Under the pieces are notes generated by a model, which saw nothing but the letters and a program-made list of their open reading frames with translations, was not told the DNA's origin and did not search any database. Both the position numbers and the translations under genes were made by a program. Of a DNA stretch of 64,000 nucleotides, positions 3,232-63,667 are shown piece after piece (positions within the stretch are counted from its first letter, which is position 1; each line of letters begins with the position of its first letter). The stretch comes from Mnemiopsis leidyi (lineage: Eukaryota), in assembly GCA_048537945.1 (NCBI GenBank), contig CM108484.1:9059785-9123784 (forward strand). Direction: 5' to 3'.

Positions 3232-6200
3232 GTTAGATAGTTTATGGAGTGAAGTGATATATAAGTTTTGTCTTCTCATGCAGGCTGTCACTGATCCAAT
3301 AGCTTAACTTTGTTTGCTGACATACTTTTTAGAGATTTTCCCCAAATTGTGGAAGAATTTTGTGCCCACCTGCAGGAATCAGGATAAGCATGCCCTTTTT
3401 TTAACCAACTGAACGGGTGACCGACAACTTCACCACAAGATTAGAAGTTCCCACACCCTTCACAGGGTACCCAATCAATCTGACATTTTGCCAGATCTGG
3501 TGATCTTCTGAAACGAAGACTTCACCACAAGATGGGGTGGCCAACTTCACCGCAGATTTCTAAATTGTAGATTGGAGAACATGCCCATGTTGTTGTCCTA
3601 GTGGATTAAGGTTACAAAAAAGGCTTTCAAAATAAAAAATGTTTTATCAAATAGTTACTTCGTATAATTATGATATACTCTTAGATCAGTCAATTCGCAT
3701 TGCCAACTCAAACTTGGGTGACTGACAAAACTTGCATCCCTATAAAATGGCCACTCCAGAAGGTCTTGGAACCTCTCCTAAGTTTGAACCTCTCCTAAGT
3801 TTGAATCACTACTCCACCATTATGGTGGAACCTGACTACCCTGGTACCAGTAACCTTGTGCAAGGTTTCCATCGTTGGACCTCTAACCCGAACTTGTTCG
3901 CTATCTCCACTGATTTTGAGGATCAATCCTCAGCTCTTGAGTATTTGTTCGCCATCGCCAAGTTCTTCCGCCACCTTCTCACTGCACAGCTTGAATTAAC
4001 TGTTGTTTTAAAGTGAGCAATAATTATTAAGTATTTGTATTTGTATTTGTTACACCTGTACCCAGGCTTTTACAGTTATACTGAAGGGGCTCCTGGAAGA
4101 TTCTAGATCTTTTAACGGAGACCCTCCTCATTTAACCCTCAATCACGGTTTCCCGGTCATTCGGCTGAGTCGACCGAAGAAGATTGCATAAGCAAATGCC
4201 CTTAGCGCACTCCTCTAGGATTGGCGGATCTGGGAATTGAACCCCCGACCTTCTGCATAGAAAGTCGGGGTAGATACCAATACACCAGTAACTTTAGACT
4301 TATCTATCATGTAACTGATTACTGATAAACAACAATTTAACTTTGACTTTAACTTGTGTCCACTTTGACTTGTGGTGAAGTTGTCGTTGTGGTGAAGTTG
4401 TCATGTGAAACTTAAAAAGATTAATTGATTGGGTTCCCAATCAATGGATCAAATACCCCTGTCAATCATGTGGTAAAGTTGTCCCGCAGCCAACTGAACT
4501 GATCGTACTATATCCGCCAGAACTATGCATGTTCCATCAAAACAGCTTTATTCTCCTTATCTTAAACATATGAATAAATCTTTGACATCAGAATAAGAAA
4601 GACTCCAAATCCAAGTCATCTGCATCATGTTGCTTACAGTCAAAAAGTGCTTCCTGACTCCAGAGGCCAAGGTTGTGAGATCACCAAAATTTCCACAATA
4701 AGAGTGCTGCAGCCTGTTGCACATTCTTGCCTAGCACATGTTTACATAGTCCAAGCCAAGTGCCTATAACAAGAAGTTAAGCATGCACTTAATCTTTATC
4801 AAGAATTAAATCACTAAGAAGTGATCCTAGGTAGACTCTGAAAAGGACACTGTACTTGAAGTAGGAGTCAGTTGAGGTATTTTCTTTAAGAAGTTTTTAA
4901 GTGCAACAGAGGACATCATCTCTCTAAAGTAACTCAAACCCAAACCAGTCTTTAGCAGAACGTTACTAGGGCCACAAATGAATGAATCTTCTCATTTAAT
5001 CAACAATTAAGTTAAACTACCATACACCATTTTATATATATGAACCTGAAGACGGCTTAATACTATTTTTGCTTTAAAGAAATGCTTTAGTTTACTAGTG
5101 TATTATGTTCTTATCCATTAGTTTCTGAATAACATTTTTTATATCAATTCAGGTGTGTTTTGACTGCAATAAAGTAAATCCTACGTGGTCATCTGTAACG
5201 TTTGGAGTTTTTATATGCCTCGACTGCTCCAGTAAACACAGAAACCTTGGTGTTCATCTATCTTTCGTGAGAAGTATTGATCTTGACAAATGGACTTGGG
5301 TTCAGCTACGGGCTATGCAAATCGGTGGAAATGCAAATGCTGTAAGTATTAGAATTTTTCACTGTTATTTCTTCGATTTTTAAGCACTGTACTGTATGTT
5401 CCTCTACGGTGCTGTACGAAATCTGCTTATCAATTCCAATTTTCAGAAATCATTTTTCGCTGCCAATGGATGCTCAACAAATGATTCAGTTCAAAAATAT
5501 AACAGGTTTGACTTGGCAGCACATTCTTGAACTAGTTGGTGTACCTCATAAATAATCTCATTCCTGCAGTAAAAATAAAGTTTGCTAATAATATTAAAAA
5601 CCATAATATTAAGAACTTGTTAAGTCATAATTTTAATCGATTTTCCATCAAGTTACCACTGACAGTCCATTTTCGTCTATTCTATTCAAACAGTAAACCC
5701 CTGCAATTCTGTGGCCATCCAATCAACAAAACTTGGTCACACATTCCGTTGTGGGCATTGTCTATGCTTGTTTCCCCTATATAATCTTGTTCTTCGAGAT
5801 TTTTCGGGAATCTACTCTAATCTCAATAGCGGCATCATTAAATCCTTAGTCAATATCGGGTATACTTCTAACAACGTTTAGCAGTGATGCAACAGCTCTA
5901 GTGAGGTCCTTTGCTAACAGATTGTGAACTTTAATCAAGTTTTTAATCAAACGATCTGAAAATTATCGTACAAGCCTTGGTTGCTATTCTTATAAACAGG
6001 TAGATGATATTATTTATGAGGCACACTAATTATTTTTTCATTACTAACTGGAAACCCTTTTAGTGTCTTAAAAAGGCAGTTCTTCTGTCCACTATTAATA
6101 TTTTTACGTTAAAATCTATTCTATAAACTTGTTGGTGGAAAGGAGGGATTAAATATTCTCAAAGTGTTGATAACGTTTTTAACGACTAGTAGCAGTATGC

Positions 6201-11644: not shown

Positions 11645-14600
11645 CTGATAAAATCATTATTAAAATATTTCTGCAGGGAAGACTATTTTCTATCAATAAC
11701 TCGGGGTTTTATTTATTTGTCTAAAATTAAATAGAAGTCTTGAAGTGCGACTTACCCTTAACCTTAACATTAACAGCGCATACCTGGTTGCTATGTCCCG
11801 ATGTGGCAATAGCAGCAATATTTTCTGGTCCAAGATCCCCCACCATAGCTTTGAACTTGTCCGCCTCTATTTTCACCATTTTCCTCCGCTTTGTCACTTC
11901 AAGTTCGTTACAAGCTCGCAGGTAGTCCAACTCGCTTTTGCGGGCCGAAGAAATGCGTTCCAACTCCCCACGCTAAAAAATTGGGCGTAAATCAACAGAA
12001 ACTCGGCACTTTATCATTGATCCCAGGCCCGAATCGATAAATTAAAAAGTTCCATGGAGATTACTGCGAAGAACCTCAACAAAAACTCAAACTCAGTACT
12101 CACGGCGTTTATGTTCTCTGCTTCTGCAGCCAGTTTTGCCTGATCGACGGCTGCTTCCCCTTCAATTTTCATAGACTCAGCCCGAGACTGTGCCTCTGCT
12201 CTCGACTGCCCTGTGCTCTCGACGGCAGCTGAGCTGTCATAATACGGCTGATTAAATGACATAAATAAAGCAGCAATCTGCATTTCAATGTAAGAAATTC
12301 GTTGTGATTGAATTTAAATTTTAAGTTTTGAGCTTGTCTCTAAAATGTGACTGTAAATGGCCTGAAAGAACCGTAAGTTTGGGATTTTTATTTGAAATTG
12401 AACTTAGAAGAACACTGCGAAAACTCACACGGCTTGTAACTCTAAAAGTTCTTTTCTGGCCCTCTCCGCTTCTGCTTCATCGTTGAGTATCTGTCTCTCA
12501 AGTTTTCCTCGAGCCTCTTGGTCCAACCGCTCAGCTTCGTGTCTGAATCAAGAAAATTTCATAAATTCTTCAATTAAAATGCCTCAGCACAGTAAAATCC
12601 TAGAAAAAATGTGCAACCTTAGTTAGAGGTTAAAGGAAAAAAGATTTACCTAGCGGTTGCCTCCTGAGAGTTGGTAGTGATCTCAATAGCCAGCTGTACC
12701 GATTTCTGGAGGGAGTCTCTAGTTCTCTGATCGACTGGCTCGACAGACTGTATGTCTATATTAGATATTCTAAGTCGATTAGCTGGGAAGTATAGTGAGT
12801 CTTTGTCGCCCAGGATCGCTTGGTTTATTATTCTCACTGAGTGCTGAAAGTAATACTAGTAAGTTACCTCCAATCTTTTGTTCACAAATGACGTCATCAT
12901 TCTTACCCCTCCCCCTTTTTGCTTGTTCATCATTCGTCATCATGGCTAAACTCCTCCATGATGAACTTATCCCAGTCAGAACCCCCCCCCCTCCCTGCTT
13001 GAGGCTAAATAGCAAAATCTTTTATCATTTTGATCTTGTTCAAATGAGACAATTTTGCCATATAATTAGACTTCTACTTTCTCAAGTTAAAGTATGTACA
13101 GCATGAGCATTTCAATAACCTTGTGAAAGTCATCAAAAGGCACTGCTGCCACGGCTCCTCTTATTCTTGAAGCAATTGATTTGCAAGCGTCCCCGACAAA
13201 ATCTGGCACAGAAAACAGAGACTCGGAATCGCGCTTGTAAGTCGGCGAATCTTTCTTTGGCGTATCAAACTGCCTGCAGTTGTTAGGGAAATAGAAGATG
13301 ATTCATGAAACACTGGAGAAAATCGGGCTAATTATAGGTATCTCTCATAAGAGGGTTATCGCTAATAAATTGGCGCTAGGACTGGGAGTGAAACTTGACA
13401 GTTCGAGTAATGATTTGGTGTTTCCAGCAAACCATAGGTAGGTTCCTATTTAAATCAAATTCAAAATTGCTCATTTTTGCTTCGAGTCTTTCACTTACCA
13501 ATTGTAACAAAGCTGTAAAGAAAGCCTGGCATGGTCAGAAGTTTCCACCGTAAAAACATCCGTCATAAAATCAGGTCCAAGGGAGAGATCCAGAGTTCTG
13601 ATGACATTGGGTCGTTTAGGCTGGCCTCCAGAGAGACTAAGTTGGGTAAAGTGCTCGTCTGGGCCTAGCATGACCAAGTCTGGTCCGAATATTACCCTGA
13701 AATTGTTGGCTTGAGCTTCTGAAACACCTCAGTTATATTTGCAGACCAGAGTGTGGCTGCAGCTTTGCGGCAGCAGGCCTGACAACGTCAGGCAAGATTA
13801 GAATTGCTACGAAGAGTGAAGACATGAAGATGACCTCTCTCCTAGCTCTGGGTCATCCGTTTCTCATGTCTTCTTTGGTGTTCCATCCCCGTCCACTGTC
13901 GTTAACCCTTTAATCAGCTCTGAGCTCTTCTCTGACCTCCGTCATGCAATGCAAATTTAATATTTATCCCAAGGGTGGAACTGGAATAAATTAATTGCGC
14001 GCGCGTTGCGTAACGTACGTAACGTAAAAACATTAGTCGCGCGACAAAAACCACTAAAAAGACAAAAGGATTAGCGTGTTCCACAAAACACTCTAACAGT
14101 GTGTTAGTCCAGTAGGCCTTTCGGCAAAGTGGTACCATTTGAAAAGACCTAAATTGGCCATTTCAAGAAAAAACATAAAATTTTCAACACTAAATTGGAG
14201 GTGTTCCGCCCGTACGATTTTCTTCAAACTTTCAGAGCATGTTCCTTTTGACCAACACTACAAGATAGCGTCGGGAAAAGAGGGGGTTTATGAGTAAGTT
14301 TTCGAAATACAACTTCAAACACAAGGAAATATCTGATAATAAAAAAGCCCAATTCAGAGGTGTTCCGACCGTGCGATTTTCTTTAAAATTTTACAGTATG
14401 TTCCTCTTGATCTAAACTATCAGAAAACGTAAAAAAATTTGAGGGTCTATGTGTTAGTTTTCGAGATACAACCTTAAACACAGGGAAAAATCTAGAAATA
14501 AGTAAGCTGACCATGGAACAAGCCGATTTTGGAGGTGTTCCGACCGTACGATTGTCTTTCAAATTTCACAGTATGTTCCTTTTGATCTAAACTATTAGAA

Positions 14601-47600: not shown

Positions 47601-50600
47601 GTACATTTGTAGAAATTTAATGTGTAATTAAATTTATGACAGACATTCAATAACTTTTAATTGTGACAGTTCAGCAGGTGAAGACTAAGGGGCATACAGG
47701 AGAGTGAAAACTCTTACTTTTACGAGTTTCTTCCTACCAAACTGGTTCTTTCCATCAGCTCCGACTGGGTCTAATATAACGCAGTACTGTCTGTCTGTTA
47801 GGACCGTTACAGCAACTGTATCCTTTACCTCCTCGAAAACATCAGGAATAAATGAAACGGCATCCTGCAAGGTAAATTCATCAACACAAAATCTAATACC
47901 TCAGGTAAAAGAACAACCAATCTAGTAGCTAGTTCTGTAGTTCATACTTCGCTACAGTTCATAATTTTTTGCAATTTGATAGTTTCGAATCCGAATAATC
48001 GTCACGTGACCCCTTAAGTGATCCAATATAAGGCCCCAAAATGGAAATTTGTAACTTTGATCAAAGAGAAAAGTTAGACCAGTATTTTGGCGTAAAATTT
48101 AACGGCGAATCCGATGGTGACAGTCCCGAAGCTCAAAAAACTTTTTTAAACCTTCTATATGGCCCTTATTGACTCTCTATAGGCCAAAACTAAAATTTTT
48201 TTAACTTTGAGGTAGAAGAAAAGTTAGAATAGTAATTTCACGTAAAATTTGACAAGGGATCCGAATTAAAAGTTCGAAGCTGAAAAAATATTACGTTATT
48301 GCTAAGTGACCCCTTATTCTTGACCTAAAAGAAAAGTTAGACCAGCATTTAGACATGAAATTACAAGGAATCTGAAAACCACGTGTCTTTTCTGGCTGGG
48401 GCACCCTTTGCGTTTTGCGACTGACTCAATACCACATGATTTATAATTCATAAAAAAATTAACCATTTAAAATTGCACTTGCACTTATAGTATAAGGATA
48501 AATCCAATAATTGGAAATTTATCGAGCAAACATCAAAACTAAAACCTTTTCAGTCACCAGCCATTCCTGCCCCGTTTTCCTCTTCTTGCCGAATCTGTCA
48601 GTAAAACTCTGGGTAGCAACCACGTGCAGAGCAAGCTTTTTGTTCAGTTTGTGTGCAGACAGGGCACCTATAATCTGCTCGTGAGGACCAGGTAAGTAAG
48701 CTCCAGGCCTGCTCACCAGCCACTCTTCTCCTGACACTCGGGCTCTTCCTTCTCTGTCCTAATATTAAGAAGTTTTATATTAGCAGGACAAATGACGTTG
48801 TCTTGCCAGCATAATTTGTTGGTCTGGTTCTGAAGATCAAAGCCACTAAATATTTAAGCTGTAAAGATTTAAGCTGAAGTTAATAGCTTTAAAGTTGCAT
48901 TGACATTATGATAGTGTGAGTCTGGAGCTGGCTAAGTATAAAAAACTTGGAGCTGGACTCATTAAAAAATAAACATTCCGAAACTACAACCAAACTCCAT
49001 TAACTCATATCTATCATATCTCAGAACAAAAACCTTGCAGTCTCGTTCAGCTCTAATCCTCAGAGCGGTATGTGGTATTTGAGGGATGACTGTAGCTTTT
49101 ATAGTCTCAACCACCTCCACCTCAATGCGCGGGGTATAAGTACCTGTGAGGGTTCCTTTTAAGTTTGCAATGTGTCATGATATAAGCATCATATAGAAAA
49201 AAATTAGTTTAGGGCCTCCTGTGTTATTTAGATTTAAAATGTACCTGGGCCCTCAAACAGCCATTGGTCCAAAGCAAGACGATTGATTTCACCATCTTTG
49301 AAGTCCCTAAGAGCTTGCAATCTCAGTGCAGTATCACAAGGAACGGCTCTTAGTTTGGTCACTGCTTCATCAAGTCTTTCTCCTGGATACAGCGGGAATG
49401 GTTGTCCAGCAAGTCTCACTTCCAGGTCCCCATATTTCAGTTTGGCCTGAGGTTAATACTTCGTCAACTAAAGAAGGGTAGGCACATAAGTGCTAAAATT
49501 AGCTTATTCTCATGGTTACTGTAAATCCTACTGACAATTATTGTTTTTTTTATTTTAAAATATTACAGCTCTTTTCAGATAACTTTACAATTAAAAAGGT
49601 TTTTACATGGTAAGGTATTTTAGAATTTGCAGTTTAGATGAAATAATTTTTGTTAGACTAAAACTTAATTTGAATAGATGAGTTTTATAAAAAAATAAGG
49701 TTGGTATTTTTGCCATATGATTCTAAGAATATTAAGGACTAAGATATCAGTTGAGAATCATTTTTAGAGCAAAATATGTTTATTTTGAACCTGCCCAGTT
49801 GATTCAAGAACAACATTTCCAGTAGAGTCTTTGGTAACTGGGTGACGAACAACACAATAATGGTTAGGAGGTATAATAACCATTTTTGATGGTCCTTGAA
49901 CAACCTCCTCGTTGTCCTGCAAAATAATTAAGCTCTTTTAACAATAAGTTTTTGTTCTCAACAACAAAAGATTCAGTACAGGGATATAGTCTTGAAGCCT
50001 GAGCTATTTAAGAGTCCATGAGTATGACTAACAAGGACTACAGACACTTTTGACCTTAGGGCGACTGGCTGAGCAAAGCCGGCTGCAATGAAAAATGGCT
50101 GTTTTTGGTTTCTTTTGGTCTTTTTTGCAATAGAAAGTCAGATTGTAAGGCATTTCAATGTAATTAAACCTGAAAATACTTGCCCAGATTTAACTATGGA
50201 CTGACCAAATTCTTGATGAACCTATAATGCATTTGATCATGATTCATGGATTATGCATGGCAGTGGCCTAGCCAGGGGGATCCATTGGATCCCCCCTCTT
50301 GAAATTAAAATTTAGAAAAATTTTAAGACTAATTAGTATAAGGCAAGGATTCATCTGGCATATAAGTAAGTACGACTGTTAGTCTGAATATTTCCTAGCT
50401 TTTTAGTAGTCCCAAGATGGAAATGCGGAGTTTAACTATGCCCTTTTAACGGGTCGTCCACATAAGATGTCATCAAGTTTTCGGCATTTTTTACCAACCC
50501 CCCTCTCCCTCCTCTGTCATCATGAGTTGGTAGTGTTATAGTGGTATCTATCCTGACTTTCTACGCAGGAGATCGGGGGTTCAATTCCCAGATCCGCCAA

Positions 50601-52493
50601 TCCTAGAGGAGTGTGCTAAGGGCACTTGCCTATGCAATCTTCTTCAGTCGACTCAGGTTAAATGAGAAGGGTCTCTGACCTCTGTTAAAAGATCTGGAAT
50701 CTTCCAGGAGCCCCTTCAGTATCACTGTAAAAGCCTGGGTACAGGACTAAACACCCTAAATTTCAGAGGTAAATTACCATAATGATGTCATCACAGTTGG
50801 GACCCAACCCCCCCCCCCCAAATTTCATGTCAATATACTTTGATTGGCTCATAATTGCCATTCATTATGATCAAAAATTCGTCAAAAACACAGCTCATAA
50901 TTCCAAGACTGCGTGATGCACTACGATAATAACAGCACCTCCTCTAGGTTATCAGACAGCTCCTTAACATCCTCTAGGTAGTTCCTCACTATCCTCCTCT
51001 AACATGAGGCTCTTCTATAAGGCCACATTTCAAAAATGTTTGGAGGATTAACGGCGAAGTTTAACTTATTCAACTTGACCTACAATACATAATTGAACAA
51101 ATCCCCACATAGACAATCTCTCTCCAGTTCCAGCAACCATTAAAAATTTTACAAGCTTTAAGATGTATATACCAGAGCTTGGTAGAATTGTACCATATAC
51201 AGTTCTACCTTAAGTTTTAACAAAAATATTAACCTGAAAATTGTCTTACTTGAATTTCACTGGAAAAAATTTTGATTAAAATCATGATAAATTGATAAAT
51301 TTTTTTTGAAAATTCTAAGAAATCTCCATAAAGTTGTCGATTTTTGATGACATCATCATTGGCAAAATCCCTCACCCCTTCGTCATCAATCGTCATCAGT
51401 TGGAAACCCCCCTCCCCCTAAGTGAAGACATCATATGTGAACGACCCCTTACCGATTTGATCTTTTTTGGTCTCTGCTACACGGCTTGTAAACAGGGATC
51501 GGCCAGATTTACTTTCATTTTATATTGTTTCCTACTTTACTTACAACTTATTATACATGGTCATTCACAAATCATTTAATTTATATCTTAAAATTGTACT
51601 TTGATTGGGTTCAAGTCAATGCAAAGTCTAAAATATCTTAATTGTAATGATTAAAGCTTTTTTTCAAAGCTACCATCATTATCAAATCATTTTAATTTCT
51701 TTTTTATTCTATGCTTGATTGAAATACATAATTTCGTATTTGAGACTTGTTACAGCACTAGGAATGACAATGTTTTTTTTCCTGGAGAAAGCAGTGACTG
51801 GCACCTCCAATCTAACCATTTCTTTATTGCAAGATTGCCTCCCGCAGTCAAAATTTTCATTAAAATCTTTAGTGCCTCCAGACATCTGCTGTACCCCGCT
51901 GGCATCACCAGCTCGTCAATGTGGGATCCCCCTTCCACAAATCCAAGCTAAGCCCCTGAATTGCATGGGCAGGATCATTAATGAGCAAGACATTTTAAGA
52001 TCAACAAACTTCAGACTTCTCCACTCTTGACTCTTCATTCCATGCTCCTTGGAATTTTCAACATGTCACCAAATTTTGCTGAACCTTTTTACAAAATTTG
52101 TTTTCCCCTAGCCTAGTTACAAGTGCACCCTGATTTTTTTCTTGAAGGGGCACTTGCCCCTAGTGTAGCCCCAACCTCCTGAATAATGGGCATGCATTAC
52201 ACAAGGTCGGCTTTGACTTAATTGAATCAGCATTATCAATACACAAATCTTTTCAATTCTTTTTTACTACAGGGTTTTTCAAAAAGATAAATATAGACCT
52301 TTTTACATTGACTTTTAAAACACCCTGACCCCTGCATTTATCTAGCTATCATTTAACGAAAAAAGAGTAAAACCTGTCGGACAAAGGTCGTTGGACCAGT
52401 CAGAACTCTTGTGATATTGCTGCTTTGATCAAGAATGTGTAGATAGTAAAACGGTGGTATCCTGAAGATTCCATCACAATTAGGAGCTTTCAT
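11510..52493 (-). CDS. MVP: Major vault protein gene (16 coding exons; ATG at 52493, TAG at 11512-11510 on the - strand)
   Basis: The minus-strand spliced translation is collinear with vertebrate MVP end to end. It begins [40 protein letters not shown] and [21 protein letters not shown], continues through PFPLYPGE...WLFEGPG and the vault repeats with [70 protein letters not shown] and [30 protein letters not shown], and ends in the coiled-coil tail [21 protein letters not shown]...[18 protein letters not shown]. All junctions are GT-AG and phases are consistent. Exons (plus-strand coordinates, 5'->3' of the gene): 52374-52493, 49791-49916, 49245-49446, 49034-49143, 48546-48758, 47718-47864, 47455-47577, 47129-47278, 46640-46890, 13499-13696, 13120-13273, 12650-12843, 12431-12542, 12104-12277, 11784-11972, 11510-11644. 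Confidence 0.85.
11784..11972 (-). CDS. MVP: MVP exon 15 (..[49 protein letters not shown])
   Basis: Matches MVP [49 protein letters not shown]. Acceptor TTTTTTAG, donor GTATGC. Confidence 0.8.
12104..12277 (-). CDS. MVP: MVP exon 14 (...[41 protein letters not shown])
   Basis: Matches MVP [44 protein letters not shown]. Acceptor ATGCAG, donor GTGAGT. Confidence 0.8.
12431..12542 (-). CDS. MVP: MVP exon 13 ([37 protein letters not shown])
   Basis: Matches [41 protein letters not shown]. Acceptor TTCAG, donor GTGTGAGT. Confidence 0.8.
12650..12843 (-). CDS. MVP: MVP exon 12 ([11 protein letters not shown]...[35 protein letters not shown])
   Basis: Matches MVP NSARIIR...[35 protein letters not shown]. 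Acceptor CTTTCAG, donor GTAAAT. Confidence 0.85.
13120..13273 (-). CDS. MVP: MVP exon 11 ([43 protein letters not shown])
   Basis: Near-identical to [36 protein letters not shown]. Acceptor CTGCAG, donor GTTATT. Confidence 0.85.
13499..13696 (-). CDS. MVP: MVP exon 10 ([29 protein letters not shown]...[12 protein letters not shown])
   Basis: Matches MVP [29 protein letters not shown]...DHARLQLQLAYNW. Acceptor AATTTCAG. Phase 2->1 join gives R and W across the junctions. Donor GTAAGT. Confidence 0.85.
14150..14790 (-). repeat. Satellite family A, block A1 (reverse orientation; about 3.5 divergent monomers)
   Basis: Same reverse-complement monomer as A3. Preceded by a junction (GTGTTAGTCCAGTAGGCCTTTCGGCAAAGTGGTACCA) that is near-identical to the one at 18735. 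Confidence 0.85.
14795..15300 (-). repeat. Satellite family B (~130-bp monomer), block 1, with conserved terminus GTGCCTCCAGCCAGAAAAGACACGTGGTTTTCAG
   Basis: Tandem units read ...TATCAAATTCGGATTC(C/G)TCGTCAAATTTTACGTCAAA...CCATT(T/C)TG(G/A)GGCC(C/T)TATAGGGGT(A/C)ACT(T/A)AA(G/C)GGGTCACGTGAT. The same family in the opposite orientation is at 47945-48425 and 52835-53470. Confidence 0.8.
15790..18750 (+). repeat. Satellite family A, subfamily block A2 (forward orientation; 6-monomer higher-order repeat of ~1070 bp, about 2.8 copies)
   Basis: Monomers carry GGTCGGAACACCTCCAAAAATGCCTAGTACCATGGTCAGCGTACATATTATG. The variant monomer (CCGGTACCAAAATTTCGGCAAATTGGTACCATGGTACCAGAAAGTCCAACTCCGTGG) recurs at ~15950, 16900, 17970 and 18690, giving a 1070-bp period. 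Confidence 0.9.
18790..20600 (-). repeat. Satellite family A, block A3 (reverse orientation; about 10 monomers, more divergent)
   Basis: Monomers read GGAGGTGTTCCGACCGTACGATTTTCTTTAAACTTTCACAGTATGTTTC...CAAGGAAATATCTCGAAATA, which is the reverse complement of the forward monomer. Confidence 0.9.
21590..21830 (+). repeat. Minisatellite, ~22-bp unit (TACGTGTTACTGTCCTCTCAGG), about 10 copies
   Basis: Direct reading. The imperfect tandem copies produce the repetitive [18 protein letters not shown]-type ORF. Confidence 0.85.
21845..45447 (+). repeat. Satellite family A, main array. About 23.6 kb, ~178-bp monomers (~130 copies), with 3/4/5-monomer higher-order units (539, 714, 889 bp) nested in a ~3.06-kb super-repeat
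   Basis: Direct reading of the sequence. The monomer runs CCAAATTTTTTTACATTTTCTGATAGTTTAGATCAAAAGGAACATACTGTGAAAGTTTAAAGAAAATCGCACGGTGGGAACACC...GAAAACTAACACATAGACCC. Every third to fifth copy is a ~185-bp variant monomer carrying the insert CCAAAATTTTGGC(A/T)ATTTGGAACAATGGAACAAGAAAGTCCAACTCCGTGG. The identical ORF-track peptides recur at 539/714/889/2520-bp spacings. The whole array lies inside MVP intron 9. Confidence 0.95.
46640..46890 (-). CDS. MVP: MVP exon 9 ([23 protein letters not shown]...[17 protein letters not shown])
   Basis: Matches MVP [23 protein letters not shown]...VPHNAAVQVYDYREKRAR. Acceptor TTTACAG. Donor GTTGGT at the 5' edge of the 33-kb intron. Ends in phase 2. Confidence 0.85.
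47129..47278 (-). CDS. MVP: MVP exon 8 ([50 protein letters not shown])
   Basis: Matches MVP [44 protein letters not shown]. Acceptor TTCTTCAG, donor GTTTGT. Confidence 0.85.
47455..47577 (-). CDS. MVP: MVP exon 7 ([41 protein letters not shown])
   Basis: Matches MVP [37 protein letters not shown]. Acceptor GACAG, donor GTGAGA. Confidence 0.8.
47718..47864 (-). CDS. MVP: MVP exon 6 ([13 protein letters not shown]...[23 protein letters not shown])
   Basis: Matches [28 protein letters not shown]. Acceptor CTTGCAG, donor GTAAGA. Confidence 0.85.
47945..48425 (+). repeat. Satellite family B, block 2 (in MVP intron 5), ending in the conserved terminus CTGAAAACCACGTGTCTTTTCTGGCTGGGGCAC
   Basis: Reverse complement of the 14795-15300 block, including the 50-bp terminal sequence. 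Confidence 0.8.
48546..48758 (-). CDS. MVP: MVP exon 5 ([15 protein letters not shown]...[10 protein letters not shown])
   Basis: Two vault-repeat GEEWLV cores, matching MVP DRDGKERVTGEEWLV...RTGEEWLVT. Acceptor TATTAG, donor GTTTTA. Confidence 0.85.
49034..49143 (-). CDS. MVP: MVP exon 4 ([20 protein letters not shown]...RAERDCK)
   Basis: Matches MVP GTYIPRKEVEVVEIIQATII..LRARKECWD. Acceptor CACAG, donor GTTTTT. Confidence 0.8.
49245..49446 (-). CDS. MVP: MVP exon 3 ([25 protein letters not shown]...WLFEGP)
   Basis: Matches [28 protein letters not shown]...[10 protein letters not shown]. Acceptor CCTCAG, donor GTACAT. Confidence 0.85.
49791..49916 (-). CDS. MVP: MVP exon 2 ([42 protein letters not shown])
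   Basis: Matches MVP [27 protein letters not shown]...VTGQ. Acceptor TTTGCAG, donor GTTCAA. Confidence 0.85.
50525..50745 (+). mobile_element. tRNA-derived SINE copy (in MVP intron 1)
   Basis: GGTAGTGTTATAGTGGTATCTATCCTGACTTTCTACGCAGGAGATCGGGGGTTCAATTCCCAGATCCGCCAATCCTAGAGGAGTGTGCTAAGGGCACTTGCC...AAGCCTGGGTACAGG. It is not a functional tRNA, because the 3' end does not pair with the 5' acceptor arm. Confidence 0.8.
51340..51457 (-). mobile_element. MITE family 1 terminal fragment (115 bp)
   Basis: The reverse complement matches 56291-56405, including the TIR AGGGGTCGTTCACATATGA. Confidence 0.7.
52374..52493 (-). CDS. MVP: MVP exon 1 ([40 protein letters not shown])
   Basis: Matches the MVP N-terminus (M..[35 protein letters not shown]). 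Donor GTTTTA. Ends in phase 0 and joins exon 2, which begins DNE. Confidence 0.75.
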
Positions 52494-52834: not shown

Positions 52835-53470
52835 AGGCCTTAAAAGCCGATATATCCGAATTTGATAGTTTTGAATCCATAAAACGAGCAAGTGACCCCT
52901 TAAGTGAACCCTTATAGGGCCCAAAAATAGAAATTTTCAACTTTAAGCAAGGAGAAAAAATAGACCAGTATTTTGACATAAAATTTGATAAGGAATCCGA
53001 ATTTGATAGTTTTGAATGTGAAAAATGGTCACGTGACCCGTTAAGTGAGCCCTTATAAGGCCTCAAAATGGAAATTTTTAACTATGGCCTAGGGGAAAAG
53101 TTAAACCAGTAAAATTTGATGAGGAATCTAAATGTGAAGGTTTTGAATCCGAAAAATCATCATGTGCCCCCATAAGTGACCCCCTATAGCCAAAAATTGA
53201 AAATTTTTAACTTTGTTGTAGATGAAAAGTTAGACTAGTATTTTCACATAAAATTCGACAAGGAATCCAAATTAAAAGTTTGAAGTCAAAAAATATCACA
53301 TGACCTGCTGAGTATTTTTTGTATTTGTTTTTTGTTACAAAAATTTTGAATTTTTGGCTATAGGGGGTCACTTATGGGGCCACATGATGATTTTTCGGAA
53401 TCAAAACCTTCACATTTAGATTCCTCGTCAAATTTTACTGGTTTAACTTTTCCCCTAGGCCATAGTTGAA
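52835..53470 (+). repeat. Satellite family B, block 3, upstream of the MVP start; the last ~130 bp (53335-53470) is inverted relative to 53085-53200
   Basis: Same monomer family. 53340-53465 is the exact reverse complement of 53085-53200, giving a local inverted duplication. The flanking segment 52560-52830 is the reverse complement of 15290-15560. Confidence 0.8.
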
Positions 53471-53896: not shown

Positions 53897-54181
53897 GTAC
53901 CCAGGCTTTTACAGTTATACTGAAGGGGCTCCTGGAAGATTCTAGATCTTTTAACGGAGACCCTTCTCATTTAACCCTCAATCACTGTTTCCCGGTCATT
54001 TAGCTAAGTCGACTGAATAAGATTGCATAGGCAAATGCCCTTAGCGCAATCCTCTAGGATTGGCAGATCTGGGAATCAAACCCCCGATCTTCTGCATGGA
54101 AATTATTGTTTTCCTTGAAATTATTGTTTTCCTTGAAAGTCGGGTAGATACCACTACACCACCAACTCACAAAGTGACCCC
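53897..54181 (-). mobile_element. tRNA-derived SINE copy with an internal 18-bp tandem duplication
   Basis: Same family. Contains GGAAATTATTGTTTTCCTTGAAATTATTGTTTTCCTTGAAAG inserted in the tRNA-like head. Confidence 0.8.
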
Positions 54182-54189
54182 TTTTCTTG

Positions 54190-54415
54190 AGCCCCTTCTC
54201 ATTTAACCCTCAATCACTGTTTCCCGGTCATTTAGCTAAGTCGACTGAATAAGATTGCATAGGCAAATGCCCTTAGCGCAATCCTCTAGGATTGGCAGAT
54301 CTGGGAATCGAACCCCCGATCTTCTACATGGAAATTATTGTTTTCCTTGAAATTATTGTTTTCCTTGAAAGTCGGGTAGATACCACTACACCACCAACTC
54401 ACAAAGTGACCCCTT
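54190..54415 (-). mobile_element. Partial SINE copy created by tandem segmental duplication of 53955-54185
   Basis: Carries the same private 18-bp internal duplication as the adjacent copy and lacks the first ~55 bp of the SINE tail. This points to local duplication, not independent insertion. Confidence 0.7.
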
Positions 54416-54419
54416 TTCT

Positions 54420-54530
54420 TAAGCTAGAAGAAAAGTTAGACCAGCATTTAGACGTAAAATTACAAGAAATCTGAAAACCACGTGTATTTTCTGGCTGGAG
54501 GCACGCTTTGCTCTTGAGACTGATATGGAT
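54420..54530 (+). repeat. Satellite family B terminal fragment (one unit plus the conserved CTGAAAACCACGTGTATTTTCTGGCTGG terminus)
   Basis: Matches 48300-48425 and the reverse complement of 14820-14880. Confidence 0.7.
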
Positions 54531-57130: not shown

Positions 57131-59185
57131 CTGGTTCTTCAATCCTAAGAGAAAAATTGAATAAAAGAAATTTAAATTGTGTAAGAAAAACATAAAACTT
57201 GACGAAGGCCGATCATGCAATTGCATGTGTCAGACCAAGAAATCATTTAGTCAATAACTTAGCAGAGATTTTACAAGATTTGTTTTATTTACCTGTTCTA
57301 TAGAGTTCTATAAAGCAGGATTAACACCTTTTTTATTTGGGGACAATTATTCATCAAATGTCATTTCCTGAAAAGTGATATCATTATAGTTGTGTGGTTG
57401 TTATGAACATTTTGATCCCCGAACACAGAAAATTGTGTTAATTGAACGTGTTAATGGTACAGAGGACCCTGGATGTAGTTTAGACTGAAGTTTTGACTTT
57501 GAAAAACAATTTGTTTAATTGAAATTTTTGGTCGATTGATACGATTCAGACTCTAGATATGTGTGATAATGTAATGTCAAAATTATGACTTACTTTCTTA
57601 CTTACTCTAATGCTGCTGTAGATCTCAGACTTAGAATAACTTAACAGAGAGCCTCAACGCTGTGTTCACGAGGTTGGATACATCTCGATGGTCTAACCCC
57701 TAACAAAACCAGATAATCCCACTACCAAATCTGACCACTTCAAACCATCTGCACCTAATTAGCATTTTTTGTTTAGCAAGAAACAAGAGAAAAGAACATT
57801 AAAAGAGAAAAGAGAGTTCAGAGTCGGCAAGCACTTTAATGATATGGAGGAAACCTGAACTTGACATCCAAATTCTGTGTGACCAGAACTCACAGTGAGT
57901 TACCAGAACTCACAGTGAGTTACTCACCGCAGCTGTAGAAGCATACCTTAGATCACTACTGTTTGTAACAAGTTTGCCGCTCAGTGCAAAATGAGAAATC
58001 TTTTTCATTTAAGGGATAAAACTTCAGATAAAAAGTCGAACTTCAATCACTCTTGAAGGTGATATACTGTCAAGCCCAAAAATTTCGAAATTGTCTATAT
58101 TTAGCTCAAAGCACAGTCATGAGATAATTATAACTTCTAGAAATGTTGAATAATCAAATATTGGGTTTTAGAACGGCTGGTCTTGAGCAATGAGACGAAC
58201 CAAGTTGTGTTGAAGTGAATTAATTTACCTTTATCATCAGCACTTTATTACAAAATTGACTCAAATTATTTGTATAATAGTAGTAAAATACGATTTTTAG
58301 TAAAATACGATTTTATTTTCTTGGCATTTTACACAATCAAAATATAAAATATAAATCATTTTTCTGCGTTGGATACCCCACGTAATGCGCACACGCGGCA
58401 GCAGGTTGAGGTAGACTTATCAATCACTCTAGGCTGTGCCGCGCACAGTGCCTTGCGCTGAACACTCAACACGTGTCTCTCAGTAATGTAGATTTTACAA
58501 CAAACAATTGTTAGTAAATAAATGTTAGGCTAAACAATTATATGTAAGTGTGTGCTACAGTGATCACGGAATATGGGATAAACCGTAAAAAAAGAAGATA
58601 CATTACTTAATGCTTAGGTTTTTATCATTCGCTGTGACAGCAGAAAAACAAGTATTTTCAGAAAAACAAGCAAAAATATTAATAAAAAAGCAAAAATATT
58701 AATATTCCTAAATAGTCAAGTTAGGATATTCCTGATCCCACCAGAGTTTAAAACATAATTTTCAACGCTGCTCAAAAACATCATAATACTCACCAGTCAG
58801 TGAGCATTCAGGGGAGCGCAATTGCTGCAGTCCTAGTGTTGAAAGTATTAAAACTAGAAATGTTGATAGTTCTTGAGTGTAGGCAAGGCATACTAATTGG
58901 CCTCAGAAGTTACACTCCGCTTGCCTTGGCCAGCATGCTTGCTCCCAATCTACCTTGGTGACCTCCTATTAGAAAATTCGTACATTAATTAAATAAATAG
59001 TAATAATAAATTAAGGTTGATTATTTTGCACCTAGTAAAGAAAAATTTATGAAAACTAAATCCCTAAGCTCAACTGTGCCTAAAAACAAGAATAAGAATA
59101 AACAGCTCAAGCATAACAAAGCTAGAAATACTGACAATAAAAAATATTATCATTACAAATTTAGGCAAAAGGGTCATATAGTTTG

Positions 59186-60060
59186 GTGAGTGGGGCAATT
59201 GGCGCCAATGGATCCACTCAATGGAAAGAATGGATGTTCCAATGGCGCCAATGGCGATGAGGTCAGTGGTGCCAATGGTGGTCCCCATCGCCGGTGCCAA
59301 TGGATGTGTTCCATTGACGACAATGGCTATCGCCATTGGCGACCATTGGATCATTTATAGTGGATCCATTGGAACCACTCGATGGCGATACCTTTTTCAC
59401 GATCACCACTCAGAGTGATTGGATCATTTGGAATTACAATGGCGACAATGGTAGCAATGGTGACAATGGTACCAATGGTGACAATGGTACGGACAATGGC
59501 GACATTGGTGACAATGGCACCAATGGCAACAATGGCGTCAATGGCGTCAATGGCGATAATCAGATAATAATTATACCGAATTATCGGCATTAACGACAGT
59601 GGTGCCATTGCGCCAATGTTGCCATTGTCGGCCCCATTGTCACCATTGTCACCACTGTCGCTATTTTTGAGGTATCATTTTTATCTTTGCCTGATTACTA
59701 TTGTTCCATTGGTACCATTTTTGCCATTGTCGGTACCATTGTCGCCATTGGTACCATTGTCGCCATTGGTACCATTGTTGCCATTGCTACCATTGTCGGC
59801 TGTCGCCATTCTAATTCCAAATGATCCATTCACTCTGAGTGGTGATCGTGAAAAAGGTAATGCCATCGAGTGGTTCCAATGGATCCATGATATAATATCC
59901 AATGGCGATAGCCATTGTCGCCAATGGAACACATCTATTGGCGCCAATGGCAATGGGGACCACCATTGGCACCACTGACCCTATCGCCATTGGCGCCATT
60001 GGAACATCCATCTGTTCCATTGAGTGGATCCATTGGCCCCTATTGCCCCACTCACCAAAC
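59186..60060. repeat. ~870-bp near-perfect palindrome built from 9-bp CCAATGG(N2)-type units (left arm 59186-59578, right arm 59595-60060)
   Basis: Left arm: GGTGAGTGGGGCAATTGGCGCCAATGGATCCACTCAATGG...(CAATGGTGA/CAATGGTAC/CAATGGCGA)n. Right arm is its reverse complement: ...CCATTGAGTGGATCCATTGGCCCCTATTGCCCCACTCACC. About 90 CCAAT/ATTGG motifs, many in NF-Y-like context (RRCCAATGG). Lies 1.75 kb upstream of the clathrin heavy chain ATG. Confidence 0.9.
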
Positions 60061-60204
60061 TATATGACCCTTTTACCCAAATTTATATTATACAGATTAG
60101 AACAAAATCTACAAAGTTGTGAAACCGTGTCAATCAACATAACATACAATAAGCATATTTGTAGTAGCAGCGGATAGTTATTTAGTCTCATAATAGTTCT
60201 GATT

Positions 60205-60600
60205 TGAATGTTACTTTTCTCTGTATGACTAAGAAATGCGATCTTTTCCTAAAAGATGGCATTTCTTAGTCATACAGAGAAAAGTAACATTCAAATCATA
60301 CAATAAGCAAGCAAATTCAGTCAATATTAGATTGGAGAAGATTTTTTGAATAAGTGAGTCTTAAAGTCGTCCCTTGAAATTTTTAACAGAAGCTGATGTT
60401 TGTATGGCCCCAGGAAGACCATTCCAAAGCTTTGCTGCACAGGAAGTGAAGGCTCTGTCATCAAATGATGATTTGGACACACATGTCTGTATTGATGGTA
60501 ACCTACTTCCACTTAGGTTACAGTACTTAACCAGATTAGAGATATAATCTGGTGCAATACCATTTAGAGCCTTATGAGTCACAAGTAATATCTTGAACTT
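60205..60600 (-). mobile_element. Degenerate interspersed-repeat ORF remnant (conserved ...AFTSCAAKLWNGLP..I..S.SV..FK..LKTHLF tail) adjacent to a 90-bp perfect palindrome (60205-60297)
   Basis: The minus-strand ORFs 60361-60582 and 60327-60512 (frameshifted) encode the widely dispersed metazoan repeat-borne peptide motif DRAFS.AAPKLWN.LP...FK.RLKTHLF. TTTGAATGTTACTTTTCTCTGTATGACTAAGAAATGC / GCATTTCTTAGTCATACAGAGAAAAGTAACATTCAAA forms a hairpin. The element class is not determined. Confidence 0.45.
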
Positions 60601-61820
60601 GATCCTTTCTGAGAATTAATTACTGTAATAGCATCGAATTTGAAACATATTATTTTTCCAGGTTCATGCATGTTACTTAGTTGAAATTAAACTTCCATTT
60701 CAACAACCTTCAAAAAACCGTTCAAATTATGGTCGAAATCATGGGTTATTTTCAGATGTTATATTACGCTCACCTCAGTAAAATGCTGAAACTTAGCTGC
60801 CCCAAAACTCCAATGGTCCAGAATCAGTTGTTTCTAATTTTCTTGTTTCACTGTACATTTTCAATCTTCACCATCTTTCATTCCCAAGAACAGGTTCTAA
60901 AAATCACTTTCATGTGCTCCTAAGTTCAAATTGGTTTGATTTCGACATAGTTGTATGACACAGTTAAGATTAAAACAATGTTATAGGTTAGCTTTATGTC
61001 TGCTGAAAAATGGCGTCTGTTGTCTGATAAGCCTCTTAAAAAACAAAAGACGGGAGGATTATGTTGTGCTTTTGGTTACTGTGCCAACTGTATTTCTGGG
61101 AACAAAATCAGTGCCATTACAGATAGAGGGTTCCTTTTTGTAGTTCTTACAAAAGCACAAACAGAAGGCAGCCAATTGGCAGAAGAAACCGGCTAGTTTT
61201 ACCTTGATGTGTTCAGAGTTGTACTTAGGATAAGATATAAATATACAGATGGACATTACAGGAATTTTGATCATAGTGTTTATAAGCTAGTGATGAAATT
61301 TCTGGTAAGACTGTGATTACTTAATCATTTGAAATCATCAACGTTCCATTGAGTCAGCATGGAGCAGCACCCAGCATCCCTGGGCCAGGTTGAGGCTGCT
61401 TATTTGCTGAATTCCAGCACCTATCTCTTTATGTCACATTGCCGAGTTCCCATGCATGCTGGCCTGTCGTAGGAATTACAAACTTTGAGTGACTCAGGCC
61501 TTAAATATGGACCAATGTTACGATATCACGTTCAACTATATTTTAAGTCAAAGTCGTTTCTTGGCAATATATCACCTTTAAACAACCTTAAACAACATAT
61601 TACACCAATGAATACCATTCCTAGCCAGCAGCCTGTATCATTAGTAGTACACTAGCAGGGACTCTCAGGCAGATGATTTTACTCCCTCTTCGCTTGGTCT
61701 TTGTTATTGTTATAATGTTTGTTTCACACATTTTTTCACTGTATTTTTAACTGTTCATTACAAATATTCTTATGACAATTACCTGTAGGGTAGGGTAGCT
61801 GTAAAACCGAAGGAGCCAAC

Positions 61821-61862
61821 ATGGCACAAGTGATGCCAATTCGGTTTCAGGAGCATTTACAG
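61821..61862 (+). CDS. CLTC: Clathrin heavy chain exon 1 ([14 protein letters not shown])
   Basis: ATG at 61821, donor GTAACT at 61863. Matches human [14 protein letters not shown]. Confidence 0.9.
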
Positions 61863-63083
61863 GTAACTTTTATTCAGTTTAAATTATTTGTTGTTTGAAC
61901 TTATTTTGCCATTAGGGCTTTTAGACTGTGTAAACTTTGTCTTCAGATGCTAGACATTTCAGATAATTATTTATGTCAAGAAAATTTATGTTTTGTCAAC
62001 TATGTATCGAAACACTGGACAACTTAGTAATTTAATGCTGTGTTAAATTTTTCAAGAAATTATGCTACGATTGTTTAAATAAAAATAGAAGATGATTTCT
62101 AATGGAGACCTTCAATGGAGAACCTAAAGTTCTTTAATCATGTTTCGAACAGTATTTGTTAACTTAATCAGCCCTTAAATTTTTCACGATGATAATTATT
62201 TATTAATAGTGTTAAACCTATTTTTAGCTCTTAGTGGGGTTGGCTACTAATAGTGAATAATCAAATTCAAAAATATCACTGGTAACTGCATCTTACATTC
62301 ATCTATTTCAGCTCACCAATATTGGCATTAACAGTGCCAACATCGGCTTCTCGATGATTACCATGGAATCAGATAAATTCATTTGTATCAGAGAAAAAAA
62401 TGGGGATCAGTCACAAGTAAGTCATGGTCCTGTCATGGGACTATTTTTACTTCCTCTACTTCAATAAGACAGTACAGTGTGAATTACTATGTGCAGTCGT
62501 GCACAGGGGCGTAGCCAGGGGGATCCATTGGATACCAGGATCCCCCTCTTGAAATGAAAATTTAGAAAAAATTTTAAGACTACAATATACTTTCATACTT
62601 TACATTGTTTCCTACTTTACTTACAATTTATTATACATTGTCATTCACAAATTATTTAATTTATATGATATATCTTAAAATTGCACTTTCATTAAGTTCA
62701 AGTCAATGCAAAGGCAAAAATATATTGATGGTACTGATTAAAGCTTCAAGCTACGATCAAATAATTTTAATTTCTATAAAAAGGCTCTATCGTATTCTAT
62801 GATTGATTGACCTCTGCTTAAACTCGCTGGCATCACCATCGTCGATTTCGGATCACCCCTTCCAAAAATCCTAGCTACGCCCCTGTTCATGCAGACGATC
62901 TTTAAGAATGACCACCAGACTGCAAATTTCTAAGTGCCTTAATATTTTTGTACTTTTCAATATTTCCTTCTCCATTTCAGGTAGTTATAGTTGATATGGC
63001 AGATCCAAATAACCCATTGCGGCGTCCAATTTCTGCAGACTCTGCCATTATGAACCCCTCAAGCAAAGTTATAGCTCTCAAAG
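61821..63083 (+). CDS. CLTC: Clathrin heavy chain, 5' end (coding exons 1-3; the gene continues past the window)
   Basis: [14 protein letters not shown] | [35 protein letters not shown] | [34 protein letters not shown](G). This is essentially identical to the human CLTC N-terminus, and the exon 1/2 boundary falls at the same residue. Exons: 61821-61862, 62312-62416, 62981-63083. Confidence 0.9.
62312..62416 (+). CDS. CLTC: Clathrin heavy chain exon 2
   Basis: [35 protein letters not shown] matches human [35 protein letters not shown]. Acceptor TTTCAG, donor GTAAGT. Confidence 0.9.
62504..62884 (+). mobile_element. MITE family 2 (381 bp; TIRs CAGGGGCGTAGCCAGGGGGATCC ... GGATCACCCCTTCCAAAAATCCTAGCTACGCCCCTG) in clathrin heavy chain intron 2
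   Basis: Terminal inverted repeat CAGGGGCGTAGC / GCTACGCCCCTG with an AT-rich interior. A second copy is split at 50261-50340 plus 51500-51960. Confidence 0.75.
62981..63083 (+). CDS. CLTC: Clathrin heavy chain exon 3
   Basis: [34 protein letters not shown] matches human [34 protein letters not shown]. Acceptor TTTCAG, donor GTATGT. Ends in phase 1. Confidence 0.9.
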
Positions 63084-63667
63084 GTATGTATTATTTTGTT
63101 TAGAATTTCACTATCACAAGATACATCAACAAAATCATCATGAAAAATTATAAACAGAAGCATAATTGACGTGTAAACATTGAACATATACACAAGCACT
63201 CTCAACCCAGGATTCTGCTAGCTCCAACGATAAATAAGCAAGGGTTGCCCTTTATAAACGTTAATGATACCAGAAAGATTTTCTTCCAGCCGTTCCGGGG
63301 CGTGTCTGAATGTTAGGCTTTTTATCGGTACTTGGTAGAGCCTTTGTTTTGTTATCTTGTTTTATGCCATGTTTTAAACCATGTTTTAAACCATGGACAC
63401 GATTAAGATTCGCAACTCTTAGAAGTGCCGTAATAGCATTGCCAGGTTTACGGGGGAAGAATCGCTTTCATGACACCGGACTAGATGAAGTGACACTATA
63501 TAAAGTCCATAGGTCATATGAAATGAAATAAAAACTATATTTCACTAAGAACTCTTGAATAACTGTCGGGTTAATGTAAATTTGGTTCATGATATTTTAT
63601 TTATCTATATTTTTTAAGTGTAAAATGTTTCAAACGAATTCCTGGCCTGCTTCAAGCAGGAAGTTAT

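Follow-up and report, generated by a model that had tools for sequence, protein, structure and literature searches.

Genomic Context of the Element

The window, which is the whole 64-kb stretch of DNA that was analyzed, carries an ArfGAP gene (5129–5380, plus strand), an MVP gene (11.7–49.9 kb, minus strand), and a clathrin heavy chain gene (61822–63085, plus strand), in this order. The MVP and clathrin heavy chain genes are divergently transcribed, and the spacer between them is rich in repeats. The element described here, a long inverted repeat, sits in this spacer. The clathrin start codon at 61822 lies 1.74 kb downstream of the element, and exons 2 and 3 then follow. This agrees with an earlier annotation of the locus, hereafter the sequence-only reading, which had placed the feature 1.75 kb upstream of clathrin heavy chain.

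The host was examined by protein comparison of the flanking genes. A 592-residue composite of the minus-strand MVP exons matched its best cluster, which holds the Bolinopsis microptera protein XP_063673840.1, with 78% identity and 1091 bits. All other clusters reached at most 62% identity and 826 bits, and the cluster with a Mnemiopsis leidyi protein stood at 61%. Named mollusc, cnidarian, echinoderm, and sponge proteins were 56–59% identical to the composite. The clathrin N-terminus showed 79–85% identity to fish, hemichordate, priapulid, and coral proteins alike and was too conserved to indicate the host. The adjacency of ArfGAP and MVP is common to the window and Bolinopsis microptera CM047404.1 (L007). 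The MVP composite and this gene order together place the window in a ctenophore. Within the 10 kb upstream of MVP in Bolinopsis, neither a clathrin exon nor a copy of the element's family was found.

Architecture of the Inverted Repeat

The element proper spans 59164–60077 (914 bp), which corrects the boundaries of 59186–60060 given earlier. It starts with GGCAAAAGGGTCATATAG and ends with CTTTTACC. A perfect 8-bp direct duplication, CAAATTTA, directly abuts both termini. Its left copy (59156–59163) adjoins the first conserved base of the family terminus, and its identical right copy (60078–60085) was located by reading the sequence and by aligning the ends. Repeat finding had let the palindrome seem to reach 59154/60087; it does so merely because the AAATTT core of the duplication is self-complementary. 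The left terminal core of the inverted repeat, GGCAAAAGGGTCATATAGTTTGGTGAGTGGGGCAATTGGCGCCAA (59164–59208, plus strand), is the best conserved part of the family, and the 45-bp terminus of the element reads GGYAAAAGKGTCATAWAGTTTGGTGARTGGRGCAWTTGGCGCC. A terminal 29-mer, GGGTCATATAGTTTGGTGAGTGGGGCAAT, is identical at both ends and occurs exactly twice in the window, with 0 occurrences expected. The G+C content of the element is 46%, compared with 37% for the window.

The two arms, ~59164–59610 and 59611–60077, are each ~445 bp long. They had been described as exact reverse complements forming a perfect palindrome. The long inverted repeat is real, and it is imperfect. When the element was halved and one arm was aligned with the other, we obtained 388 matches, 40 mismatches, and 58 gap columns, corresponding to 90.7% identity over aligned bases. 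The longest ungapped arm pieces from repeat finding were 139 nt at 92%, 105 nt at 91%, and 84 nt at 87% identity, with the rest being shorter. Aligning the region globally with its reverse complement required several indels of 3–8 bp, and the central ~140 bp aligned poorly and paired weakly. The predicted single-stranded DNA fold is a single hairpin of −413.6 kcal/mol, versus −137.8 ± 5.3 kcal/mol for shuffled sequences (z = −51.6). Judged by this predicted fold, the inverted repeat is far beyond chance. The sequence-only reading had further taken the arms to be nearly mutation-free, so that the structure would be either very young or maintained. This does not hold, as ~9% of aligned bases differ between the arms and several indels separate them. 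The apparent paradox of a structure that is unstable yet free of mutations vanishes because of this divergence. Given arms that have diverged by ~9%, the intact 16 bp of the duplication are unremarkable either way.

Each arm is divided into an outer and an inner domain. The outer domain of the left arm (59164–59435, plus strand) is not tandemly repeated and contains scattered CCAATGG and CCATTGG in both orientations. It pairs with 59811–60077 and is 66–88% identical to other copies of the family. The inner domain (59436–59560, plus strand) is a tandem array of the 9-bp unit NCAATGGYR, detected by Tandem Repeats Finder (TRF) with a period of 9, 13.6 copies, and 77% matches. A 9-bp spacing between AATGG sites occurs 11 times on the plus strand. 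The hairpin tip (59561–59702) is a degenerate middle with AT-rich stretches and an extra CCATTG block (~59600–59665). It has no coding capacity, pairs weakly in both the self-alignment and the predicted fold, and is crossed by ORFs that match no Pfam family. The inner domain of the right arm (59703–59810, minus strand) carries the 9-bp array reverse-complemented, in the CCATTG orientation, and is 87–94% complementary to the left array. TRF resolved this right array into a period of 18 with 5.0 copies at 59706–59798 and a period of 9 with 10.6 copies at 59715–59810. The outer domain of the right arm (59811–60077, minus strand), supported by repeat pairing, self-alignment, and the alignment of ends, finishes with the terminal core TTGGCCCCTATTGCCCCACTCACCAAACTATATGACCCTTTTACC. 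True 9-bp tandem arrays were detected only at 59436–59560 and ~59706–59810, which amounts to the inner ~100–125 bp of each arm. Higher-order periods of 18, 48, and 57 bp were also detected in the arrays.

The number of repeat units was lower than first proposed. The sequence-only reading had counted ~90 CCAAT-box-like 9-mers, and we counted 51 AATGG sites on the two strands, 21 of which carry CCAATGG (11) or CCATTGG (10). The shorter motifs CAATGG and CCATTG were present 24 and 23 times, respectively. Together they reached 5.1 per 100 bp in the element, ~59 times their density elsewhere in the window (0.087 per 100 bp). The typical flank of a unit is YGCCAATGG, and the base completing the CCAAT pentamer is C in 41% and A in 39% of the units.

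The six-frame ORFs through the element had been dismissed as artifacts, and our analysis agrees. No Pfam family scored above the cutoff, and the indels in the arms break the reading frames. The (NGD)n ORFs were considered as coding sequence and rejected: their single match, Collagen, scored 23.8 bits, below the 27.2-bit cutoff, and arose because the 9-bp period puts glycine at every third residue. An exact database look-up of two window ORFs running through the element, aimed at a second assembly of the locus, returned no record. The element is non-autonomous and encodes nothing recognizable.

Related Copies at Unrelated Loci

To find relatives of the element, the spurious ORFs of the right arm were concatenated and used as a protein query, which retrieved eight database ORFs (E-values, 1e-18 to 9e-6). 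Contigs were available for six of them and came from five independent ENA assemblies produced with different assemblers; the contigs bearing related copies are labeled as metagenome assemblies. Several of the matched ORFs, e.g., P0001, run along one arm and return along the other. With one 82-residue arm ORF as the query, an exhaustive HMMER search yielded 24 cluster representatives at E ≤ 1e-3, mostly short ORFs of this type. Two of the transposon-ORF matches are UniParc entries whose accessions share a block with one from the Mnemiopsis MVP cluster, which suggests that these two entries are ctenophore gene models. The database proteins P0189 (231 residues) and P0193 (179 residues) start inside a family copy and continue into unrelated protein-like sequence. 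They may be transposon-initiated ORFs or gene-model chimeras.

Searches at the DNA level covered the window, metagenome and viral contigs, and the related loci. A blastn search of the element against the 64-kb window found no copy outside the element itself. When the conserved terminus was used as a DNA pattern, in two versions, neither the JGI metagenome contigs nor the viral contigs contained a match. A literature search on ctenophore foldback elements or MITEs found none in the papers covered. Against the related loci, blastn of the window element gave 66–88% identity. One of the alignments to L001 was nearly full length, and overall identity between the window copy and L001 was 66–73%.

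Four related copies are complete (L001, L002, L004, and L005). They lie at unrelated loci, all of them are foldbacks, and they have the ~45-bp terminus and the CAATGG 9-mers in common. L002, L004, and L005 are 354, 378, and 662 bp long, with arms that are 80%, 90%, and 75% identical and duplications of GATAATAC, TAAATTTT, and CAAAATTC, respectively. L001 has nested spans of 1061 and 1409 bp, arms that are 90–94% identical, and the duplication GTTTCATG. The arms of the relatives measure ~175–530 bp, and the CAATGG/CCATTG density across the family is 2.7–5.1 per 100 bp. The window copy and L001 both keep the CAATGG core of the unit, with variation at the remaining three positions, and in both of them AATGG sites are most often spaced 9 bp apart. 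No transposase-like ORF of at least 150 aa was found near the related copies; a 465-aa ORF at L004 has no Pfam family, the L001 copy sits between two MFS transporter genes, and these loci contain no further long ORFs.

The L001 locus (4143–5551) is a compound copy: after a full 1061-bp foldback comes a partial arm, and a single GTTTCATG duplication encloses both. Its internal junctions read ...CTTTTACC ATTCATTA ATTGTGTCATTTTACC ATTCATTA AGTGTGTCATTAAG..., so that ATTCATTA appears twice. This arrangement may have arisen by nested insertion, by abortive excision, or as a footprint of repair.

The boundaries of the family were defined by aligning the 10 ends of the five complete copies, including the window copy. 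The GG marks a sharp onset of conservation, and the first ~45 bp include 28 invariant columns. The consensus of the ten ends is GGTAAAAGTGTCATAAAGTTTGGTGAATGGAGCATTTGGCGCC, and the ends read GGYAAAAG. The 8 bases outside the GG differ among copies and are identical on both sides within each copy. A perfect 8-bp duplication, each time a different one, was accordingly present in 5 of 5 complete copies. Five perfect 8-bp duplications at the exact family boundary are a signature of transposition, with the probability of a single chance match estimated at ~4^-8. AAATTT or AAAATT occurred in 3 of the 5 target sites, suggesting that an AT-rich palindromic target is preferred.

Assignment to a Transposon Class

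The feature is very probably a non-autonomous class II DNA transposon of the foldback type that has inserted into a ctenophore genome. A foldback transposon core was among the options raised by the sequence-only reading, and this option is borne out by the defined GG...CC ends, the ~45-bp core, the 8-bp duplication, and the existence of a foldback family of varying length. The same reading had stated that a feature found at many loci with terminal inverted-repeat boundaries would simply be a transposon. In substance, this is what we observed: foldbacks with the same terminus are present at unrelated loci, and each of the four complete copies there has its own 8-bp duplication.

The anatomy of foldback transposons comprises a terminal core, an outer unique domain, inner short tandem repeats, a small noncoding middle, size variation, and target-site duplications (PMC4079207). 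The element closely follows this plan. Like Drosophila FB, Galileo, Tetris, and Tm1 of root-knot nematodes, it consists almost entirely of two long inverted arms, and one strand is predicted to fold into a single hairpin. It also has outer unique and inner tandem-repeat domains, with the tandem repeats inside the arms, a small noncoding middle, a family length that varies from 354 to 1409 bp, non-autonomous copies, and target-site duplications, as in those systems (PMC4079207). Tetris differs in having duplications of 8–10 bp and a 220-bp repeat unit (PMC4079207), versus a strict 8 bp and a 9-bp unit in our element. The element is further set apart from FB, Galileo, Tetris, and Tm1 by its ctenophore host and by GG-starting termini with no sequence in common.

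The element also shares features with MITEs, being noncoding and having inverted termini, a target-site duplication, AT-rich insertion sites, and an intergenic position near genes. MITEs are usually under 800 bp, noncoding, and present in high copy number. The element is longer at 914 bp, and the family extends up to 1409 bp, with some relatives of 354–378 bp. In addition, its inverted repeat runs over the whole length, whereas that of MITEs covers 10–40 bp per end.

Candidate Transposase Superfamily

Within the transposon reading, indirect structural markers favor mobilization by a Merlin transposase, at roughly even odds, with the other superfamilies together about equally likely. Merlin elements, which are IS1595/IS1016-like DDE transposons, are described with inverted repeats of 24–462 bp, a conserved terminal 5′-GG-3′, and duplications of 8 or 9 bp, and Merlin transposase ORFs have been reported in Pleurobrachia, Beroe, and Mnemiopsis (PMC8101967). 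We favor Merlin because the 8-bp duplications, the terminal GG, and the long inverted repeats all match this description. Duplications were 8 bp in 5 of 5 copies, and the terminal GG columns were invariant in 10 of 10 ends. Inverted repeats of several hundred base pairs are possible in this superfamily, and those of our family (~445 bp in the window, ~175–530 bp in the relatives) lie at or slightly above the upper limit. The element differs from Merlin elements in that its arms are near the top of the reported range and its family has no linked transposase. No description of Merlin arms built from 9-bp tandem repeats was found.

The same transposon could instead have been mobilized by a Mutator-like/Phantom (Drosophila FB-type), hAT, or P transposase, a serious contender to which we give somewhat less than an even chance. 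Duplications of 8 bp are likewise characteristic of hAT and P elements. hAT duplications follow the pattern nTnnnnAn next to YARNG-type termini, and P elements have CA termini. Mutator-like elements make target-site duplications of 9–11 bp, and Drosophila FB has 9-bp duplications with repeat units of 10, 20, and 31 bp. The length of our duplications fits hAT, but T at position 2 and A at position 7 were each present in only 1 of 5, and all 10 ends start with GG (GGYAAAAG), in contrast to YARNG or CA. Likewise, the uniform 8 bp in all five copies departs from the 9 bp of FB and the 9–11 bp of Mutator-like elements. Architecture speaks for these superfamilies, since the foldback form is classically tied to Mutator/Phantom and, in Galileo, to the P superfamily, and Tetris, whose duplications include the 8-bp length without being restricted to it, is assigned to Mutator (PMC4079207).

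The following mechanism is proposed. A transposase encoded elsewhere would have moved the element by cut-and-paste. Its cuts would be staggered by 8 bp and would fall at a target that is rich in AT and roughly palindromic (nAAATTTn in 3 of 5 sites). This transposase would most likely belong to the Merlin (IS1595-like DDE) superfamily. The NCAATGGYR 9-mers would act as subterminal repeats that provide extra putative transposase-binding sites, by analogy with Galileo, in which the tandem repeats of the arms carry such additional sites (PMC4079207). Slippage or unequal exchange among the 9-mers could have generated the size range of the family.

Regulatory, Small-RNA, and Artifact Readings

The CCAAT-like composition of the units had led to the proposal that the element serves as a CCAAT-factor sink or as an enhancer for the adjacent housekeeping gene. 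The element resembles NF-Y-bound promoter CCAAT boxes in that a CCAAT pentamer is followed by GG 21 times. Its 0.9 kb hold 26 CCAAT/ATTGG pentamers, a density ~16 times that of the window, and it lies within 2 kb of the clathrin start codon. Factor-binding sites carried by transposons are sometimes co-opted. The extended NF-Y context is RRCCAATSR, and functional CCAAT boxes usually lie ~60–100 bp upstream of the transcription start site. The claim that many units occur in this NF-Y context was not confirmed: the extended consensus was fitted by only 1 of the 21 CCAATGG heptamers, and the whole window has 8 RRCCAATSR sites versus 9.2 expected by chance. The distance from the element to the gene, 1.7 kb, is likewise unlike that of promoter CCAAT boxes. 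In addition, the motif belongs to a transposon unit, and every copy of the family carries the motif array, at loci that are unrelated; the array therefore predates the insertion in the window and was not shaped by clathrin. The arms are decaying, with ~9% mismatch and indels, and the examined Bolinopsis locus has no family copy. Co-option of the insertion as a CCAAT-box array, whether as an NF-Y sink or as a clathrin heavy chain/MVP enhancer, is thus highly unlikely. We infer that the CCAAT resemblance is a family trait, a by-product of the 9-bp repeat unit.

Two further readings concern the hairpin itself. A read-through transcript of the ~450-bp imperfect stem might be diced into siRNAs, and such a role would be compatible with the transposon reading. 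The predicted stem is very stable, and foldback elements and MITEs are known as small-RNA precursors in plants (PMC3086885). Set against this, an Rfam scan of the window gave no family match, and Rfam and tRNA scans together detected nothing in it. A source of small RNA appears unlikely on balance. The palindrome could also be an assembly artifact, arising from a chimeric fold-back read or from a collapsed or inverted join. Missed hairpin adapters and assembly errors are known to produce palindromes. In artifactual foldbacks, the arms are identical apart from sequencing error and transposon ends are lacking, whereas here several indels and 40 mismatches separate the arms, and precise transposon termini are flanked by an 8-bp duplication. 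The architecture was moreover found again in five independent assemblies, for which different assemblers had been used. These observations make an artifact exceedingly unlikely. A broader proposal would combine several of these ideas: the family would be the first foldback-type Merlin derivative, the 9-mers would be reiterated binding sites of its transposase, and the family would have scattered dozens of CCAAT-like motifs through ctenophore genomes, so that copies like the present one, between divergent housekeeping genes, could have been recruited as NF-Y-type regulatory modules or hairpin small-RNA sources. We regard this combination as quite unlikely.

Implications for Annotation

For annotation, the feature is a repeat to be masked. 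It should be treated neither as a clathrin regulatory element nor as a fragile "perfect" palindrome. As far as its sequence indicates, it is probably ordinary repeat DNA, and nothing in the analysis supports a role as a gene switch. Ctenophore transposons are poorly cataloged, and a family with defined ends, an 8-bp duplication, and an AT-rich palindromic target can seed a repeat library. The delimited family also provides a handle for finding its transposase.

Other Repeats in the Window

Several other repeats were detected in the window. A second hairpin, unrelated to the transposon, lies at 60200–60298, ~115 bp from the transposon end. Its 48-nt arms are 98% complementary and enclose a 3-nt loop, and the window contains this hairpin once. 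On the minus strand, it lies just downstream of a LINE-like ORF tail, a fragment at 60364–60615 that reads ...FKILLVTHKALNGIAPDYISNLVKYC...AFTSCAAKLWNGLP... and that we take to resemble the C-terminal tail of non-LTR retrotransposon ORF2 proteins. This ORF fragment had no Pfam match. The hairpin may be a 3′-UTR stem-loop of a retrotransposon fragment or a small MITE.

A MITE-like element at 62504–62885 in clathrin intron 2 has the termini CAGGGGCGTAGCCAGG and CCTAGCTACGCCCCTG and near-identical 8-bp flanks, GTCGTGCA and TTCATGCA. From its sequence, it looks hAT-like. Partial copies of this element, with ~80–85% identity, are located upstream of MVP at 50261–50331, 51507–51700, and 51881–51958.

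A satellite at 14357–45401 consists of more than 150 units of ~175 bp in both orientations, with a higher-order period of 364 bp. It fills ~30 kb between the MVP exon groups at 11.7–13.7 kb and 46.6–49.9 kb (minus strand) and, from this placement, appears to lie inside an MVP intron. The MVP–clathrin spacer additionally contains tandem repeats at 52854–53273, with 3.1 copies of a 141-bp unit, and at 53957–54424, with 2.0 copies of a 232-bp unit that are 98% identical.
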